Source: Leptospiraceae bacterium (GTDB taxonomy: Bacteria; Spirochaetota; Leptospiria; Leptospirales; Leptospiraceae). From it: a DNA stretch of 11,120 bases. The DNA lies in NCBI GenBank assembly GCA_016720625.1, contig JADKKG010000114.1, positions 1 to 11,120 of the forward strand, read 5' to 3'. Positions 1-11,120 of this stretch are shown here, piece by piece (positions within the stretch are counted from its first letter, which is position 1; the number at the start of each line of letters is the position of its first letter). The notes under the pieces were generated by a model. It was not told the origin of the DNA, did no database searches, and saw only the letters and a list, made by a program, of their open reading frames with translations. The position numbers and the translations under genes were made by a program.

Positions 1-526
1 TAGCATTTGATAACCAAGCGAAGACGAAAGCCCCTAAGGTTAACACACCGAATGCGTTACCTGCCCACCAACCAAGTGAAATTGAATAAAAAAAATTCCA
101 TTCGACCATTCCATTTAAACATAGACCTAGAACTCCGATCAATGCACTAATTGTAGGCGCAATGATAATTGCAATCAGAAAGAACATACCAACATTCTTT
201 AGACTAAGCGGATATTTGTTATTCTCTAGTCTGGATTTTAAAAAATAGGCACTGAACAAAGGCTCAAGACTATTTCCGATAACAGTGGCTATTACAAAAC
301 CAATCGGTGCACCTGTTGAATAGGTTGTAAAAAATGCTCCTATACTAATTGCAGGCAAATACTTATAACCCCCGAAAAGTAAAACAGGAAGTGACAGACC
401 AGAAGGAAGCCAAATTAATGTAACATTCGATTGAATAAATGCAATTTTTAAACCGATCTTGGCAAAAAGAAAAAAAGCAATGGAAATTAAAATATTCGTG
501 ATGATAAATCTAATCTTAGAATGCAT
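1..526 (-). CDS. N-terminal ~175 aa of a MASE1-domain membrane sensor protein (partial; 3' end lies beyond window start). Likely the input domain of a histidine kinase or GGDEF/EAL protein.
   Basis: Manual translation of the minus strand from ATG at 524-526 gives an open frame to position 1 with no stop. It is absent from the ORF track only because its stop is outside the window. The sequence is MHSKIRFIITNILISIAFFLFAKIGLKIAFIQSNVTLIWLPSGLSLPVLLFGGYKYLPAISIGAFF...LGWWAGNAFGVLTLGAFVFAWL. It shows multiple hydrophobic helices plus the 'WLPSG' and 'WWaGNafGvL' motifs typical of the MASE1 membrane sensor domain. There is an in-frame TAA just upstream of the ATG, and AGGAAG lies ~15 nt upstream. 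Confidence 0.6.
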   Translation of the reverse strand, partial: MHSKIRFIITNILISIAFFLFAKIGLKIAFIQSNVTLIWLPSGLSLPVLLFGGYKYLPAISIGAFFTTYSTGAPIGFVIATVIGNSLEPLFSAYFLKSRLENNKYPLSLKNVGMFFLIAIIIAPTISALIGVLGLCLNGMVEWNFFYSISLGWWAGNAFGVLTLGAFVFAWLSNA

Positions 527-554: not shown

Positions 555-1586
555 TTACTTTTCTTCTTCCTTGCGCTTAATCGGAAGTTTCCCCAGACTC
601 TCTCCACCTATGTTCAGAAATACACCTTCTAGTTTAGTTCCGGATAGAAGTCTTGAGAACACTTCTGCAACAGATTCTCCACCGAGGATTGCAAGGGGAG
701 CCATTGCTTCTGCAATCTTGACAAGTTGATCTTTATCGTTGAAAGACTGAAGTGCTGCGATGAAATCGGGGCTAATCGCCTTTGCCCGCTCAACCATGGA
801 TCTGACTTGCGTATCAAGCTCTTTTGCTGAGAGGTTGATATTTTGTTCCTTGAAGAATACTTCTTGATCTAATCTGGATTTGTCTCTTGTGAGTTGGACA
901 GAGTTGATCTTGTTCATCAAATCTTCTTTGTTCAACTGATTGTTTAATTTTAAGTCTTCGATAGATGCATTTGACTTTGCTCGGGTAGTTTCTAAATCTA
1001 GACGCTTTTCCAATTCTTCTTTTTCGTAACCGTAAATAGCTTTTTGGGTTGAATATTGAGATTCACTGGTTTCTTGTTTTACTTTCTCCATGAATTTTAA
1101 TATTTCTAGCTTTGACTTCTCGCGGGTAAGAGTTGTTGACTCCTGAATCAGAGTTTGTTGCGATTCTTGCATAAGCTTTGCAATGGCTGCATCTTTGATA
1201 AGAATGCCTGTAACTTCCACATCGTAGATTTTCATTTCATTTTCTGTAAAGTGGTAACCAGCATTATCTTCTCCGAGAATCGTCTTCTTTATAATGTTAA
1301 TTCCATTTGTGTAAAATTCTTCTACGCGGAAATTCTTTACAGCAGAGCGGATAACAGATCTAAATCTGTCTGTGAGAAATTTTACATAATTCTCTACATT
1401 AAACCATTTAGAAGAGTCATTTATAAAATTCAATCGGTAAGAAAGCTTAATCTGTATGCTTACAAAATCCTTTGACTCTACTTCAATTGTATCGGATACT
1501 TTGTTGTTAGCCACTCGAAGATATACATCTCGAATTAGGTTTTCATCTGTCTTTGGATTTCCTTTTGATAGAGAAAAAACTTGCAT
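555..1586 (-). CDS. Major vault protein (MVP) homolog, C-terminal part: shoulder (SPFH/band-7-like) domain, coiled-coil cap-helix and cap-ring region. Probably the downstream half of a frameshifted single mvp gene.
   Basis: ORF-track protein. 'VFSLSKGNPKTDENLIRDVYLRVANNKVSDTIEVESKDFVSIQIKLSYRLNF' aligns by eye with vertebrate MVP shoulder '[52 protein letters not shown]'. A long E/K/Q/L-rich predicted coiled coil follows (…KAIYGYEKEELEKRLDLETTRAK…). The C-terminal 'AISPDFIAALQSF…LAILGGESVAEVFSRLLSG' resembles the MVP cap-ring 'AIGPSTIRDLAVAG…LITDGSTPINLFNTAFG'. Confidence 0.75.
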   Translation of the reverse strand: MQVFSLSKGNPKTDENLIRDVYLRVANNKVSDTIEVESKDFVSIQIKLSYRLNFINDSSKWFNVENYVKFLTDRFRSVIRSAVKNFRVEEFYTNGINIIKKTILGEDNAGYHFTENEMKIYDVEVTGILIKDAAIAKLMQESQQTLIQESTTLTREKSKLEILKFMEKVKQETSESQYSTQKAIYGYEKEELEKRLDLETTRAKSNASIEDLKLNNQLNKEDLMNKINSVQLTRDKSRLDQEVFFKEQNINLSAKELDTQVRSMVERAKAISPDFIAALQSFNDKDQLVKIAEAMAPLAILGGESVAEVFSRLLSGTKLEGVFLNIGGESLGKLPIKRKEEEK

Positions 1587-1600
1587 ATCCTCGTCGAATT

Positions 1601-3046
1601 CTAAAAGGTAAGTGCTTGGTCAACTATGACTTTACGCTCTCCTGATTTGCCTACTACCATGATCGCATAACCAGCCCAAACTCCAAGAGAAACTGCGCCA
1701 TCGTATTTTGTATCAAGCGTGATATAGCGAGGAGGAGTATACTTATTTCTTCGTTGAAACGAATCGCTGGCTATTTGTTCTAATTCTTCTGCTTCTGGTT
1801 CTGATAGCAAGGAGTCAGCAACTGAAAATTCACGTTTGCTGGAAGCGGGAGAAGGTGTGGCTTGCGGTCTTGGAGGCAAAGTAGGCTTATCCGCTGGTAT
1901 TGCTTGCTTACGTAGTTCAGAATTAATTTCTATGGCACGATCATTTCCCGGAAACCAAAGACCTACTTGACGATGCTCCAAAATTCTACGAACAATTACT
2001 TCAAAGCGAGGATCAGGTAAGAACATATCGGGACCACGACGAAGTTTTACTTCACCAGTGAGACGGTTCATTACATAGCGCGCTTCTCCAAGTGGAATTG
2101 CTACAGCGTAGTGCACCTCGTTATCCTCATACTTGACGATTGCGTGTTCTTTACGTGGAAAATAAATCATTTGGTCTTTGCCAGTAAAGAAAAGCTCATC
2201 ACCTTCTTTGTATTGTGCCTCACCTTCTGTATAAGGAGCGATTACTTTGATGTAGATTCCTTTGATTTCACTTAGCTCAATCGCTCTATATTTGCGACTA
2301 CCATCTTTCTGGATAAATGTTTCCGTTGGTTCTGGAAATACAACCTCGGGACCTCGCACATAACGTTTATTACCATCTTCATCTAAGAGGATACAATATT
2401 CTAGCCGCTCAAGAGTAACTGCTTCGCGAATGTATTGGTTTCTAACATCTTTTACTACTTCAATACCAGTTGGGGGTATATAGAACGAAACCTCAGTTCC
2501 TTTAATGGTGATATGTTTCCCTAGTTTGAGTTTTGAAATATCAAATTCAGTCTGACCGGTGCTTGATTCACTTGTCTTGATGACCGCCTTATTCCAATTA
2601 TCCTTAGCGGCAGTCTCGTCATACACTCGCACAACCAAGTATTGATTCGAACGAAAATGATGTCCTTTTACTACATTTACCATTTGCCCCGACCAGAGCG
2701 GAAAAGAAATTGGTCCGGGGATATTCACTTTATGTCCCACATTGAGCTCGATGAGGCTATTCACTGTTCCAGTCTTTGGATTAGAATTGTCTTTCGCAGG
2801 ATTTTTTAGAACAAGATACCAACCTTCTGGAGATATTGCAAAGGTTTGAATGGCTCCTTCTAGAGAACATTTTTCAAAGCGCTTCGTTTTCTCATTGAAG
2901 ATGATTGGCTGATCGGTGTTGGAGAGACTTGCTTTATATGGACCAACGTAAATATTAATATTACCTTTTGTTTGGTCAGAAATAAATGCAAATTCATTTG
3001 GGGAGAGAATTAAATCCCTTTCGCGTTGTCTTTCTTCTACTGCCAT
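1601..3046 (-). CDS. Major vault protein (MVP) homolog, N-terminal part: tandem MVP (vault) repeat domains. Upstream half of the split mvp gene.
   Basis: ORF-track protein. The N-terminus 'ILSPNEFAFISDQTKGNINIYVGPYK' resembles MVP '[28 protein letters not shown]'. It has repeated ~55-aa units with the MVP-repeat signature (G-x-x-Y/F-I/F-P … E-V/I-V), e.g. 'GTEVSFYIPPTGIEVVKDV…', 'GDELFFTGKDQMIYFPRKEHAIVKY…' and 'RRGPDMFLPDPRFEVIVRRIL…'. AGGAG lies 7 nt upstream of the ATG at 3046. Confidence 0.75.
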   Translation of the reverse strand: MAVEERQRERDLILSPNEFAFISDQTKGNINIYVGPYKASLSNTDQPIIFNEKTKRFEKCSLEGAIQTFAISPEGWYLVLKNPAKDNSNPKTGTVNSLIELNVGHKVNIPGPISFPLWSGQMVNVVKGHHFRSNQYLVVRVYDETAAKDNWNKAVIKTSESSTGQTEFDISKLKLGKHITIKGTEVSFYIPPTGIEVVKDVRNQYIREAVTLERLEYCILLDEDGNKRYVRGPEVVFPEPTETFIQKDGSRKYRAIELSEIKGIYIKVIAPYTEGEAQYKEGDELFFTGKDQMIYFPRKEHAIVKYEDNEVHYAVAIPLGEARYVMNRLTGEVKLRRGPDMFLPDPRFEVIVRRILEHRQVGLWFPGNDRAIEINSELRKQAIPADKPTLPPRPQATPSPASSKREFSVADSLLSEPEAEELEQIASDSFQRRNKYTPPRYITLDTKYDGAVSLGVWAGYAIMVVGKSGERKVIVDQALTF

Positions 3047-3142
3047 AAAAATCTCCTGCTAATAGTTTATTCTGCAAATCTTAATTTGAATAATAGAACA
3101 AGCAAGTAGAAAAATATTCGTTTTATTTTTTACTTTGAGTAA
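3047..3142 (-). promoter_or_regulatory. AT-rich intergenic region between the che operon (cheY-like stop) and the vault-like gene. Likely contains the che-operon terminator and/or the vault-gene promoter and RBS.
   Basis: This is the only sizeable non-coding gap in the window (96 bp). On the minus strand it carries AGGAG 7 nt before the ATG at 3046, a possible sigma70-like TTGCTT-N16-TAAGAT, and a weak A/T-only hairpin followed by a T-run (minus strand, ~3115-3140). Confidence 0.3.
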
Positions 3143-3502: not shown

Positions 3503-3520
3503 AATACTTCCTTGCCTTTT

Positions 3521-4768
3521 TTATAAAATTGGAAATCGAACCCAAACGCATACATCTTTCATATTGTTTTCTCGTCTCATATTATTGTCTGTTGTATAAA
3601 ACGAAATACTCCCTTTGTGTAAATCAATAATTTTATTTACAACTGTCAAACCCAGACCAAATCGAAATGTTTCCTGCATGAATCTATCATCTACAACATT
3701 AGTCAATCGAAAAAATGGTTCAAAGATTTTATGCGCATTACTCTCCGTTATCCCCACTGTTCCGTCTGAATTCTTGTAGGCGGGATTCAGGATTCTGATT
3801 CCAATATCTGATTTATCATGGGAAAAGAGAATATAGATTGTATCCCCATCTTCCGAGTATTTAATTGCATTTGTTAATAATTCATCAAAGACTAGCTTCA
3901 AATTTTCTGGGCTGGCAGTAATTGATCTTCCGGCTAGGTCTCTTGGAAAATCACCCATAACTATCTTCTGATTTTTAATTCCAGCAACTGGTTTCATACC
4001 TTTTACCATTTCGGTTAATGCAGCATAGAAATCTTTCAGGGTTAATTTCCCTATATAAAAATCCTTTTCCGCTAATATGGCTTGTGTTTTAGTTAAACTA
4101 TCACTTAGTTTTAGAATTTCGTCGTAGTTGTCTTTTAATAGGTGATAAATTTTTTCATGAACTAAGTAAACTTTTTTCTCTTCATCTAATTTAGCTTTTG
4201 AAAATAAAATACTCAGTGTGCTAATAAGTGATCCGAGACCACTTCCATGGAAGAAGCTAATATTGATTTGGTGTATTAATTCATTTGCAAGAGATTCGAC
4301 TTTTCTAGTATCAAGTTCTTTTCTCCAATCAAATACTTTAATCATGGATTCGAAAACTTGTTTCTCGTTTGATTTAAAATCAGAAATCTTGGACATCACC
4401 TTTCCGTAGGTGATAGCCTTTGTTATCGCAAAATGAAAATTGAATTTATAAATTGGGTAGGAGATAATATCATACACATGATAGTTTTCCATCATTTGTA
4501 GAAACTTGTCTCCTTCCTCTCGATTGATTAATAGAATAACCAATTGAAATGGATATTCGGAAAGAATATTTCCAAGATTTTTTTGATTTTCGCTACTCGT
4601 GTCAAGAAAATCATAAACGAGTAGCCATGTGTCATCTGATTTAAGATAACTTGTGAGATTATCCATATTATCCGCTACGTTGAAAGCGTAAGTAAGATCA
4701 TCAACGTAGGTTTTCACCTGCTCTGTTATTTCTTTGTTTTGAGTATAGAGTAATATTTTATCAGACAT
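3521..4768 (-). CDS. Atypical cytoplasmic histidine-kinase-like protein: N-terminal receiver-like (probably pseudo-receiver) domain plus C-terminal HATPase_c (GHKL) catalytic domain. No canonical H-box is recognisable.
   Basis: 415 aa. The C-terminus has the N-box 'DELLTNAIKYS', a G2-like 'RFGLGLTVVNKIIDLHKGSIS' and an F-box-like 'FEPFFR', which is the classical HK ATP-binding domain. The N-terminal ~120 aa has a receiver-like beta/alpha pattern (KILLYT…WLLVYDFLD…QLVILL…DIISYP) but lacks the DD pair. No 'HExxxP' DHp motif is seen; the only candidate is the H in 'FFHGSGLGSLISTL'. Its start overlaps the cheB stop by 8 bp. Confidence 0.75.
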   Translation of the reverse strand: MSDKILLYTQNKEITEQVKTYVDDLTYAFNVADNMDNLTSYLKSDDTWLLVYDFLDTSSENQKNLGNILSEYPFQLVILLINREEGDKFLQMMENYHVYDIISYPIYKFNFHFAITKAITYGKVMSKISDFKSNEKQVFESMIKVFDWRKELDTRKVESLANELIHQINISFFHGSGLGSLISTLSILFSKAKLDEEKKVYLVHEKIYHLLKDNYDEILKLSDSLTKTQAILAEKDFYIGKLTLKDFYAALTEMVKGMKPVAGIKNQKIVMGDFPRDLAGRSITASPENLKLVFDELLTNAIKYSEDGDTIYILFSHDKSDIGIRILNPAYKNSDGTVGITESNAHKIFEPFFRLTNVVDDRFMQETFRFGLGLTVVNKIIDLHKGSISFYTTDNNMRRENNMKDVCVWVRFPIL

Positions 4769-8219: not shown

Positions 8220-11120
8220 TTACTTCAAATCAATTTTTTTCTTTCCGCCAGATTGTTGGTCTCTTCTTTTATCATCTTTTGATTTCTTAATTTGAAATCT
8301 TTTTACCATTGTTTGGAATGCTTCTGCTTGGCTAGACAACTCAAGACTAGCTGCTGAGCTTTCTTCTGCTGTAGCAGCAGCACTCATTGTCACCTGTGAA
8401 ATCTGATTGATACCAGTTGTAGTCTCTACGACCGACGAAGACTGCTCAATCGAAGCACTCGCGATGTCTTTCACTAGCTCTGTAACATCTACAACACCAG
8501 CTGTCATCTTATTCAATTCGTTTGCAGTTCTTCCCGCAATGTCCATACCAGAGCGAACTGTTTTAATCGAGCCTTCAATCATCTTAGTGGTTTCTTTCGC
8601 AGCATTCGCGCTACGAGAAGCGAGATTACGAACTTCTTCCGCCACCACGTTAAATCCTTTTCCATGTTGACCTGCACGGGCAGCTTCCACCGCAGCGTTT
8701 AATGCGAGTATATTTGTTTGGAATGCGATTGCATCAATTTCTTTGATAATCTTCGCAATGTTTTCGGAAGTTTCACTGATTTCTTCCATCGCTTTGAGCA
8801 TTCCCTTCATTTCGTTATTACTAGAAACTGCTTGGTCTTTCACGTTCATAGCTTGGTCACTTGCGTCCTTCGCATTCTTCGCGTTATCCTTAGCTTTGAG
8901 TTCGATTACTGCCAGCGTTGAAGTAATCTCTTCTACGCTACTAGCTTGTTCGTTTGATCCTTGCGAGAGAGATTGGCTGGAGTCAGCCACTTGTCTAGAG
9001 CTAATGAGGATTTGATCCGAAGCATTGATGATTTCACCAATGAGCTCATTGAAGGAATCAACGATGAGAGTGAGTGCTTTTTTAATCTCAGCGAAATCTC
9101 CCATAAAGTCTTTTGTTACTTCAACAGTTAAGTCACCTGCTGACATAGAAGAGAGGATACGCGAAATTTCCCCCACATAATCGTTTAACGTTACCAGACT
9201 TGTATTAAGAGCAGTCTTAATAGTAGCATGATCTCCCTTGTAATCACCGAGCATTCTAGCTTTTAAGTTTCCTTTAGACAATTCTAGCAACACTGCGGAA
9301 GCTTCTTGCACTGGAAGGATAACAGCGTCTAATGTGTTGTTTACCCCATCCACAATCTTACGGAAGTCACCTTGGTGTTTGGTCGCATCTGCACGAGTTG
9401 CAAGCTTACCATCAATAGCCGCTTTCGCAAGCATACCTGCATCAGCCACAAGTGCGTTTACGTTTTCAATACAACGATTAAGGTTGTTCTTTAGAGTGTT
9501 AAAATCCCCATTATAAGTATCCGTAATTTGATTTGGAATTGCACCGCGAGAAATTCTATCTACATAATCAGCAGCAACGTTAAGAGGACCAATCACCGAG
9601 TCTAATGTCTGATTAACTCCTTCCACAATCTTACGATAGTCGCCTTGGTGTTTAGTAGCATCAGCACGAGTTGCAAGCTTACCTTCGATAGCTGCTTTCG
9701 CAAGCATACCGGCATCAGCCACAAGAGCATTTACATTATCAATTGCGTTGTTTAAGTTGTTTTTAATTGTGTTAAAGTCTCCATTGTAAGTATCCGTAAT
9801 CTTAGTCGGAATAGCCCCGCGGGAAATTTTATCTACATAATCCGCGGCAACATTAAGAGGACCTATCACAGAGTCTAACGTCTGGTTAACCCCTTCTACA
9901 ATCTTACGATAATCGCCTTGGTGTTTAGTAGCATCAGCGCGAGTTGCAAGTTTACCTTCTACTGCTGCTTTCGCAAGCATACCGGCATCAGCCACAAGTG
10001 CGTTTACATTATCAATCGCATTGTTTAAGTTGTTCTTAAGAACGTTGAAATCACCGTTGTAAGTGTCAGTAATTTTAGCAGGAATAGCACCACGAGAGAT
10101 TTTATCTACGTAATCAGCAGCAACATTGAGAGGACCGATCACAGAGTCTAACGTCTGATTAACCCCTTCCACAATTTTACGATAGTCGCCTTGGTGTTTA
10201 GTTGCATCCGCACGTGTTGCGAGCTTACCTTCAATAGCTGCTTTCGCGAGCATACCGGCATCAGCCACAAGTGCGTTTACATTATCAATCGCATTGTTTA
10301 AGTTGTTCTTGATAACATTAAAGTCACCGTTATAAGTATCGCTGATCTTTTCAGGGATAGCACCACGAGAGATTTTATCAACATAATCAGCAGCAACGTT
10401 GAGAGGACCGATTACCGAGTCTAACGTCTGATTAACCCCTTCTACAATTCTACGATAGTCACCTTGGTGTTTAGTAGCATCAGCACGTGTTGCAAGCTTA
10501 CCTTCTACTGCTGCTTTCGCAAGCATACCGGCATCAGAGACGAGGTTGCCGATATTATTTTTCATTAGCATCAACCACTCATGAATTTGATCTTGTTCGG
10601 AAGCTTTGTTCATTGTCGCAGTCAAATCACCATTCGATATCTTATTCACATAGGCTACAAGATCAGTAAGCCACAAATGAACTCCGTTGACGGCATCTTT
10701 CATTTTTTGATGATCACCACGACATTCGATCTCCATTCTTTCGCGAAGATTTCCGCCTCTAATAAGTCTTAATACTCTATTTCCTTCCCCTATTGGAATT
10801 AGAATCGCATCGAGCATTGTGTTTACGCCAATTAAAACATCTGCATAGGCACCTTTGAATTGTTCTGGTTTTCCTCTTTCATCTAACATACCTGCTTTAG
10901 AGGCTTCTGTAAGACGAAGTAATTCTTTTTGTAAGGCTTGCAAGACTTGCATAACAGTGATTAAACTCTTTGAGAGTAAATCATTTTCAGAGCGAACATT
11001 TACTTTGACGGAGAGATTTCCTTCAGAAATGGCAACTGCTGCCTCTGCTTGTTGGTTAATCGCATTGATCGCCAAATTGAGGTTATTCTTTAGAGTGTTG
11101 AAATCGCCATTATACGTATC
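8220..11120 (-). CDS. mcp: Methyl-accepting chemotaxis protein with a very long tandem poly-HAMP array and a C-terminal MCP signalling domain (partial; the N-terminus lies beyond the window end).
   Basis: The ORF is open to the window edge. The track's 'M' at 11075 is a TTG inside a HAMP unit, not the real start. The signalling domain shows the hallmark '[37 protein letters not shown]'. Candidate methylation sites are 'SSVEEITST' and 'SIEQSSS'. Upstream are at least ~14 consecutive HAMP-like units (AS1-connector-AS2, e.g. '[18 protein letters not shown]…[19 protein letters not shown]' and '[25 protein letters not shown]'). No transmembrane segment falls in the in-window part. Confidence 0.95.
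9171..10535 (-). repeat. Tandem 273-bp (91-aa) direct repeats inside the MCP coding sequence. There are four near-identical protein copies plus one half-diverged copy, and each unit encodes two HAMP domains (di-HAMP module). More diverged HAMP units continue to the window end.
   Basis: The marker 'gaggacc…tctaa(t/c)gtctg(a/g)ttaac' recurs at 9584, 9857, 10130 and 10403, an exact 273-bp period. The proteins are ~95% identical ([10 protein letters not shown][IV][80 protein letters not shown]). DNA copies are only ~85-90% identical by eye, mostly at synonymous positions. Confidence 0.9.

Follow-up and report, generated by a model that had tools for sequence, protein, structure and literature searches.

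A frameshifted gene of the bacterial major vault protein family in an uncultured member of the Leptospiraceae

The 11,120-nt stretch of DNA analysed here, called the window in the following, very probably carries on its minus strand at positions 555 to 3046 one single gene of the bacterial major vault protein (MVP) family, which belongs to an uncultured member of the Leptospiraceae and is split in the middle of its last beta-repeat by a 1-nt deletion in the codon of Gly476. When the missing G is restored, the gene (555..3046, minus strand) encodes a product of 830 aa, and the intact database protein P0001 deviates from it in 3 of these 830 residues. As it stands, the window encodes no single polypeptide of ~800-900 aa with all modules, but two pieces of 481 aa and 343 aa, both on the minus strand. 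The N-terminal fragment ORF (1601..3046) contains the MVP-type beta-repeat array and is read out of frame in its last six codons (DQALTF) and at the TAG stop. The C-terminal part lies in the shifted frame (555..1620), which is open back to a TGA that the deletion created; the ORF listing shows 555..1586 of it, starting from an incidental ATG (Met488). The original prediction gave the coordinates of both ORFs exactly. However, the arrangement of two ORFs that it described is one broken gene, as each of the 81 related loci in the comparison, one of them with 96% DNA identity, has a single ORF of ~830 aa that spans both halves. Since this single-chain feature is kept in all 81 loci and the repair yields 830 aa, the locus is a damaged member of the family and not a non-member. 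A Shine-Dalgarno-like AGGAG read from the sequence (3053..3057, minus strand) precedes the start codon ATG at 3046 by 6 nt. Promoter and terminator scans gave background level only, and a search of the window against Rfam found no family. The intact protein had no match in NCBIfam, PADLOC or PHROGs; it carries no curated name in bacteria and is not known as part of a defence system. The exact 481-aa product has no record in the gene-position index.

Homology to MVP is found in both halves of the protein. The Pfam model MVP_shoulder (PF11978) matches the C-terminal ORF with 86.8 bits (cut-off 25) and E 1.5e-24 over model positions 2-116 of 118, and is also found in the proteins P0001, P0007, and P0033. 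The best sequence match of both ORFs among solved structures is MVP, and the matches are colinear (residues 209-343 of the N-terminal ORF with MVP 273-408, E 1.3e-3; residues 3-107 of the C-terminal ORF with MVP 497-607, E 6e-5). A family profile of 61 sequences found MVP as its sole match in the PDB (E 4e-26). Aligned with hhalign, the profiles of the bacterial family and of vertebrate MVP gave 99.6% probability and E 5e-24 over 635 columns, from residues 12-745 versus 8-788, with aligned columns in each module from R1 to the cap-ring. In the fold search, the full-length AF2 model (built from 61 sequences, mean pLDDT 56) had MVP as its 12 top matches (2e-14 to 1e-10), followed by SPFH cages (1e-6 to 1e-3). 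With the model of the N-terminal ORF (121 sequences, mean pLDDT 65, residues ~213-312 poorly modelled), 16 of 16 significant PDB matches were MVP, including the murine R1-R7 crystals (E 7.5e-10 to 6e-5, ~380 aligned columns), and the next match had E 0.12. The shoulder match, the colinear alignment and the fold matches thus bear out the prediction of an MVP homolog with the whole architecture in the correct order. The Pfam check that had been proposed came out as expected for MVP_shoulder, but not for the N-terminal repeats, which were matched by none of the models Vault (PF01505), Vault_2, and Vault_4; only Vault_3 is detected, and only after repair.

The beta-repeat array comprises residues ~10-513 (1509..3019, minus strand), as seen in the hhalign domain map, in the strand pattern of the AF2 model and in the fold search. 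We take the domain boundaries of rat MVP that underlie the repeat map to be those of Tanaka et al. 2009. Domain map and strand pattern together suggest ~8 repeat modules, with residues 213-312 at low pLDDT, and a compressed R2-R5 equivalent (133 aa in the domain map versus 216 aa in eukaryotic MVP), compared with nine repeats in eukaryotes; the geometry of the particle could therefore differ. In the R8-equivalent repeat, a low-complexity, predicted-disordered insert (residues ~386-438; 1733..1891, minus strand; pLDDT <50 in both models) aligns in hhalign to the disordered loop region at ~429-448 of rat MVP. The last repeat, Pfam Vault_3 (residues 470-510; 1518..1639, minus strand), is the one cut by the frameshift; it has E 1.7e-8 on the intact P0001 and is missed in either window ORF alone. 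The SPFH-like shoulder follows at residues 514-617 (1197..1508, minus strand), with pLDDT 74-90 in the AF2 model and with Pfam E-values of 1.5e-24 and 6.3e-24 for MVP_shoulder and ~1e-5 for Band_7. Residues 620-755 (783..1190, minus strand) are predicted as one continuous cap-helix of 136 residues by DSSP of the AF2 model, with a pLDDT of 84-90 for the larger part of the helix and lower values past residue ~730, and align to the rat cap-helix (647-802) in hhalign. The C-terminal cap-ring-like region (residues 756-830; 558..782, minus strand) ends at the stop at 555-557; its residues 757-822 align to MVP 803-846 in hhalign, and the motif APLAILGG.S..EV is conserved. The highest Kyte-Doolittle value in a 19-residue window is 1.25, compared with 2.6 in the MASE1 control, and the intact protein is therefore predicted to be soluble and to have no transmembrane segment.

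The locus might alternatively encode a generic SPFH/band-7 protein of the flotillin or HflK/C type with an unrelated N-terminal extension. This would fit the weak detection of Band_7 (E 3.6e-5 to 1e-5, a marginal 24-26 bits), the SPFH cages in the second tier of fold matches and the N-terminus missed by the Pfam Vault repeat models, but is highly improbable: MVP_shoulder beats Band_7 by ~60 bits, the N-terminal ORF on its own matches MVP repeat structures only, the two profiles align colinearly from residue 12 onward, and a membrane anchor is missing. The canonical SPFH cages (HflK/C 7WI3, flotillin 9BQ2/9L3G, prohibitin, stomatin, QmcA 8Z5G) share with the window protein an SPFH-type domain followed by a long cage-wall helix. 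However, they are membrane-anchored half-cages (PMC13100048), whereas the window protein has no hydrophobic anchor and carries ~510 residues of MVP repeats at the anchor position. Matches restricted to generic SPFH or flotillin proteins with an unrelated N-terminus, which the original prediction had named as the outcome speaking against it, were thus not what was found; both HMM and structural matches lead to the shoulder and the repeats of MVP. The designation as "eukaryote-type" does not hold. It would imply that the gene was recently acquired from a eukaryote or is a eukaryotic contaminant, in favor of which one can say that MVP is best known from eukaryotes and that horizontal transfer from eukaryotes has been considered for some bacterial copies (Daly et al., 2013, PMC3762200). 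Against it, the repaired protein has ~22% identity to vertebrate MVP versus 51-55% to homologs in other bacterial phyla, and the gene has bacterial neighbors in the same orientation on both sides, with a uniform GC content (34-42%) throughout the region. Moreover, in a neighbor-joining tree, in which the outgroups were vertebrate only, the bacterial sequences grouped largely by phylum, with the Leptospiraceae together. A eukaryotic source is hence extremely unlikely, and the protein is placed, as far as sequence comparison goes, inside the Leptospiraceae branch of the bacterial MVP-like clade. This clade comprises at least 284 species-level genomes as well as large phage contigs, with a cross-phylum identity of ~52%, and among the relatives is Enhygromyxa salina, on which previous work on bacterial MVP has drawn (10.1101/872010).

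The deletion that breaks the gene was located by blastn against the locus L001, in an alignment with just one gap within the gene. One G of the GGA codon for the invariant Gly476 is missing at 1620..1622 (minus strand, window position ~1621), by which the minus-strand sequence GTTGGACC becomes GTTGACC, 18 nt upstream of the TAG stop. A lesion in the TTTT run before this TAG, to be repaired by an added T, or at the stop itself was considered and ruled out by the same alignment, which puts the lesion in GTTGGACC. Seven relatives were compared at this position (L001-L004, L006, L007, L009), and all of them encode Gly-Pro (GGA/GGT CCN); both G476 and P477 are invariant among 61 sequences. Compared with the 96%-identical relative, synonymous and non-synonymous substitutions are in a ratio of 56:3 overall, with 40:2 in the N-terminal and 16:1 in the C-terminal half. 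Given this ratio and the single ORF in all 81 loci, the break is either recent or due to faulty assembly. Inactivation by a very recent mutation and an error of assembly or sequencing are about equally probable; the remaining genes of the window are intact, so that the assembly is not generally indel-prone, which somewhat favors a real mutation. When the junction was searched in JGI metagenome contigs, neither allele was present.

It could also be argued that the split is functional, either as a natural two-chain MVP or by programmed -1 frameshifting near ACC-TTT-TAG, since the two frames are open and lie next to each other, a GAGG precedes the ATG of the C-terminal ORF by 2 nt, and there is no terminator-like site between the two ORFs. 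Yet none of the 81 loci compared is split, the lesion takes a base from an invariant Gly codon, and the cut sits within a folded repeat. The ATG of the C-terminal ORF reads CTA in L009 and is therefore not a conserved start. Programmed frameshifting would moreover have to do without an X_XXY_YYZ slippery heptamer, and a slip at TTT-TAG would put DQALTF in place of the invariant GPSTYL. A functional split is accordingly very unlikely, and we give just as little credence to the idea that a genuine split form assembles all the same, out of two chains. The neighbors of the MVP gene in the window are genes of the che and two-component type and a MASE1 kinase gene. The 5' part of the latter (MASE1-PAS-HisKA; 1..526, minus strand) starts 28 nt downstream of the MVP gene, and its identification as a MASE1 sensor by the original prediction is confirmed, as a sensor kinase, by the 98% identical product of L001, in which MASE1 (9e-25), PAS_3, and HisKA are found by Pfam. 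An MVP-like protein acting as functional component or output of this chemosensory and MASE1 signaling system would be in line with the common orientation of the genes, which are 96 nt and 28 nt apart without a terminator-like site on their strand, and with the gene order in close relatives: che-MVP is kept in L001, L002, L004, and L009, and MVP-MASE1 in L001, L003, L004, and L009. However, L003 has no che cluster and L002 no MASE1 gene despite 92% identity of MVP in both, the MVP-MASE1 adjacency is restricted to the window and four of five close relatives, and neither neighbor occurs in any of 75 more distant loci. The most frequent neighboring family is the promiscuous receiver domain (15 loci), and clustering of neighbors in 82 loci (81 fetched plus the window), with an ORF filter that was crude in high-GC genomes and let antisense shadow ORFs appear, gave no conserved partner or cargo gene. 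A signaling link is therefore unlikely, and the chemotaxis and MASE1 neighbors appear to be lineage-specific synteny and not part of a system. The neighborhood noted in the original prediction is thus present in the window, but is confined to a shallow clade of Leptospiraceae and is variable even there.

Bacterial MVP-like proteins have been described in silico from Microscilla marina (A1ZGE7), Saprospira grandis (H6L4P8), and Enhygromyxa salina (A0A0C2D5V5) (PMC3762200; 10.1101/872010), and further from Corallococcus, Plesiocystis, Flexibacter, and Herpetosiphon (Daly et al., 2013, PMC3762200; Sokolskyi, 2019, 10.1101/872010). They resemble the window gene in length, architecture, ~25% identity to eukaryotic MVP and a band-7-like shoulder, and the copies in the genomes of E. 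salina and Thermoflexibacter ruber share 51-53% identity with the repaired window protein over ~810 residues. In contrast to these, the window copy is frameshifted, and PMC3762200 and 10.1101/872010 do not mention its host family, the Leptospiraceae (Spirochaetota). MVP-like proteins are also encoded by gut phages (Santos et al., 2023, 10.1101/2023.11.10.566534). We found full-length homologs with 39-54% identity on viral contigs, namely in three GenBank records of huge phages and in 18 contigs of IMG/VR. The novelty that the original prediction ascribed to the gene was set too high, because bacterial MVP homologs are numerous and already published (PMC3762200; 10.1101/872010; 10.1101/2023.11.10.566534). 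In silico, the family was recognized as early as 2013, and the window contributes a further, damaged member and opens no new question. Eukaryotic MVP (rat 4V60/4HL8, human 9BW5, murine R1-R7 3GNF) has the beta-repeats, SPFH shoulder, cap helix, and cap-ring colinear with the window protein, gives the top fold matches for both of its halves and shares the long disordered insert in the penultimate repeat. It differs by ~22% identity, by nine instead of apparently ~8 repeats, and by the Pfam models Vault, Vault_2, and Vault_4, which the window protein does not match. Of the NAD+/ADP-ribose pocket of eukaryotic MVP, 12 of 13 residues are replaced in the bacterial protein, e.g., K573 by D/E and R507 by T/S, and the sole conserved one is K506 (pocket residues from PMC12280208). 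Neither PARP4 nor TEP1 nor a vault RNA was found in the 11-kb window by the Pfam scan of neighbors and Rfam, as the original prediction had expected of such partners.

Vaults rank with the largest particles of the cell, and what they do is still disputed. By homology to eukaryotic MVP and the SPFH cages, the likeliest role of the intact protein is that of a soluble, self-assembling, vault-like shell. A closed helical barrel would arise from lateral packing of shoulder and cap helix and a thin wall from the repeat array, and barrel and wall together would give a vault-like or half-vault shell. It is conceivable, if somewhat doubtful, that bacterial MVP-like proteins, including the intact Leptospiraceae orthologs and the copies of large phages, build genuine vault-like shells in prokaryotes. 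If so, they would represent a class of bacterial nanocompartment never visualised, without an adjacent cargo gene and with a shoulder pocket lined unlike the eukaryotic NAD+/ADP-ribose site, and the vault architecture would predate or parallel eukaryotes. The window adds a spirochaete lineage to the bacterial MVP family and shows this family without a conserved operon partner and without the eukaryotic nucleotide pocket. The Leptospiraceae are not known to glide, and this would speak against the link to gliding motility that has been proposed. Self-assembly into a 39-fold half-vault and a 78-mer barrel is characteristic of the MVP family, and for other bacterial members favorable in-silico docking has been reported (Daly et al., 2013, PMC3762200). 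With the conserved bacterial clade, simple systems amenable to genetics are at hand in which to ask what purpose the shell serves, and cultured carriers of bacterial MVP exist with E. salina and T. ruber.

The MVP-like gene lies on the minus strand at 555..3046 and is read there as two adjacent ORFs, the N-ORF at 1601..3046 (481 aa) and the C-ORF at 555..1586 (343 aa), exactly where the original prediction had placed them. With a provisional fusion of both as query, thousands of full-length matches of ~830 aa each were obtained, among them the intact database protein P0001 with 99% identity. L001, the contig encoding P0001, shares its gene order with the window and 95.9% DNA identity across 7,078 nt, with only two indels. 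One is inside the MVP gene, with GTTGGACC in L001 and GTTGACC in the window; the other lies in an intergenic A-run (A6 vs. A5, window ~3505-3520) between the receiver and HATPase_c genes. When the missing G beside window position 1621 is restored, the repaired protein has 830 aa and differs from P0001 in three residues. The missing base is part of the codon for Gly476, which is invariant together with Pro477 in an alignment of 61 sequences, and Gly-Pro is encoded at the deletion site in all seven relatives checked there. Both MVP halves are within a single ORF in 81 of 81 related loci compared, and the ATG at which the C-ORF opens is not a conserved start, as one close relative has CTA there. 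The frameshift is located within the last beta-repeat, and since the break cuts through this repeat, the Pfam model Vault_3 (E 1.7e-8, residues 470-510) is matched in the intact or repaired protein only and missed in the separate ORFs. Hence, 555..3046 is one MVP-like gene broken by a 1-nt deletion, so that of the predicted two-ORF MVP the colinear halves hold, but not their being separate genes.

Codon differences in the MVP gene between the window and L001 are synonymous in 56 cases and non-synonymous in 3 (40:2 for the N-terminal, 16:1 for the C-terminal half), ratios that resemble those of the neighboring genes. Purifying selection has therefore acted on both halves for essentially all of the divergence, so that the frameshift is either a very recent mutation or an artefact. 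All other genes of the window are free of frameshifts, thus the assembly is not generally indel-prone, and neither allele of the junction was seen among JGI metagenome contigs. Decoding of the gene through programmed frameshifting is unlikely, since the deletion site has neither a homopolymer nor a slippery heptamer, and a -1 slip at ACC-TTT-TAG would give DQALTF in place of the invariant GPSTYL. If the deletion is real, the product of the window gene would be interrupted within a folded repeat and would probably lack function.

Several independent lines of evidence identify the protein as MVP along its whole length. Among sequences of solved structures, MVP is the best match of either ORF, with colinear alignments (N-ORF 209-343 with MVP 273-408, C-ORF 3-107 with MVP 497-607). 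In Pfam, the C-ORF matches MVP_shoulder strongly (E 1.5e-24) and Band_7 marginally, and the N-ORF alone matches no model. A profile of 61 bacterial homologs retrieved MVP as the sole match in the PDB (E 4e-26). Using hhalign, the bacterial family aligned to rat MVP with 99.2% probability (E 1.4e-19; residues 209-799 with 273-844) and to a vertebrate MVP profile built from 19 sequences with 99.6% probability (E 5e-24, 635 columns; residues 12-745 with MVP 8-788), with aligned columns in every module from R1 through the cap-ring, in the order originally predicted. The full-length AF2 model is confident only in R1, some later repeats, the shoulder and a helix that runs unbroken through 620-755 (mostly at pLDDT 84-90); vault structures make up all of the model's top 12 PDB matches (2e-14 to 1e-10), with SPFH cages next, at 1e-6 and weaker. 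A band-7 protein with an N-terminus unrelated to MVP, the alternative which the original prediction had set against its own reading, is contradicted by the N-terminal matches in the profile alignments and by a separate second AF2 model of the N-ORF (121 sequences). This model consists of beta modules with a pLDDT of ~80-88 for residues 10-210, and MVP accounts for 16 of 16 significant PDB matches, including murine R1-R7 crystal structures over ~380 columns; the first non-MVP match has an E of 0.12.

The bacterial protein nevertheless differs from eukaryotic MVP. It has ~8 repeats instead of 9, the equivalent of R2-R5 is compressed to 133 aa compared to 216 aa, and the Pfam models Vault, Vault_2, and Vault_4 match every vertebrate MVP but no bacterial protein. 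Of the 13 residues lining the NAD+/ADP-ribose pocket of human MVP (PMC12280208), the bacterial protein retains K506 only, whereas K573 is replaced by D/E, R507 by T/S, and P565 by E. F522 and L517 are changed to K and R, and the charge is often reversed. The substituting residues, in the equivalent region at repaired residues 497-560 (window ~1370-1560), are nearly invariant across the bacterial family, a pattern that may reflect another conserved interface or ligand site.

Five metagenomic proteins share 87-99% identity with the repaired protein, other Leptospiraceae/Spirochaetota MAG proteins 63-68%, and proteins of Myxococcota, Cytophagales, Chloroflexota, Sericytochromatia/Melainabacteria, Riflebacteria, Planctomycetota, Gemmatimonadota, Desulfobacterota, and others 51-55%, compared to just 21-23% for vertebrate MVP. 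In a neighbor-joining tree without bootstrap and with vertebrates as the only outgroups, all bacterial sequences form a single clade, which a long branch separates from vertebrate MVP and which is largely grouped by phylum, with the window sequence nested in Leptospiraceae. The gene is thus not a eukaryote-type acquisition, and the designation "eukaryote-type" had to be given up. Relatives, among them Enhygromyxa salina, a species used in earlier bacterial-MVP literature (10.1101/872010), were recovered through two N-terminal peptide patterns in 284 of 185,579 species-representative genomes. Among 1.84 billion cluster representatives, the repeat region found 827 clusters (50% identity) at E<=1e-3 and 438 at E<=1e-30. 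The family is rare per genome and phylogenetically broad. Homologs from different phyla (alignment A1, loci L011-L081) share ~52% identity over 830 aa, ~60% within the repeat region and ~41% over the C-terminal part, an unusually high level for a protein outside housekeeping functions. This points to very strong constraint on the structure, to lateral spread in relatively recent times, or to both. A second, divergent Leptospiraceae sequence (L013, MAG contig DAORDI010000408.1), 55% identical to the query, is placed at the base of the spirochaete group apart from other Leptospiraceae, and could be a paralog or a separate acquisition.

Upstream of the MVP gene are genes for an MCP with seven HAMP_2, CheW, CheA, CheB, a HATPase_c protein and a CheY-like receiver, and downstream is a MASE1-PAS-HisKA kinase gene. 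The flanking gaps are 96 nt upstream and 28 nt downstream and were scanned on the MVP strand without finding a terminator-like site; an AGGAG precedes the start. The che-MVP order is common to L001, L002, L004, and L009 and absent in L003, and the MVP-MASE1 order is common to L001, L003, L004, and L009 and absent in L002, these five being the close relatives. None of 75 more distant loci has a che or MASE1 neighbor, and the commonest neighbor family is a generic receiver domain, in 15 of 82 loci (81 fetched plus the window). The chemotaxis setting, pointed out in the original prediction, is therefore shallow synteny, and the MVP gene is not demonstrably linked to chemotaxis. As expected there, no PARP4-, TEP1-, or vault-RNA-like features were found within the window. 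In the chemoreceptor ORF (8220-11075, minus strand), which may run past the window end, seven tandem near-identical HAMP_2 units (PF18947) of ~86 aa each precede the MCP signaling domain as a poly-HAMP array. The 415-aa protein encoded at 3521-4768 (minus strand) has HATPase_c as its sole domain, with neither HisKA nor Hpt detected; its gene shares 8 nt with cheB and is kept in the che cluster of close relatives. The protein appears to be an atypical, kinase-like part of the chemosensory operon.

Bacterial homologs with ~25% identity to eukaryotic MVP have been described (Daly et al., 2013, PMC3762200) and analyzed further (Sokolskyi, 2019, 10.1101/872010; Santos et al., 2023, 10.1101/2023.11.10.566534), and no experimental work on a bacterial vault turned up in our literature search. 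The window gene adds a frameshifted spirochaete member to this known, experimentally uncharacterized family, whose proteins are soluble, strongly conserved, homologous to MVP in every module and encoded by a stand-alone gene. No hydrophobic segment was found in the protein (maximal KD19 1.25 vs. 2.6 in the MASE1 neighbor), defense, phage, and NCBIfam models gave no matches to the intact protein, and in contrast to encapsulins, no cargo gene adjoins the MVP-like gene across the 82 loci. By analogy, lateral association of the SPFH-like shoulder and the 136-residue helix would yield a closed barrel cap, as is paralleled in vaults and SPFH cages (PMC13100048), with the repeat array as wall of the shell. 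The R1 segment, which is invariant, e.g., at T26, T44, and D45 in positions equivalent to human waist contacts, could pair two halves. That intact family members form cages in this way is conceivable, at somewhat below even chances. Huge-phage records 462 kb and 735 kb long (LR756500.1:21054-23381; LR756501.1/LR756503.1:17395-19599) and 18 putative viral IMG/VR contigs (L082-L099), mostly of 60-416 kb, also carry full-length MVP-like genes with 39-54% identity at 88-94% coverage, and these copies may extend the "first viral MVPs" of 2023.
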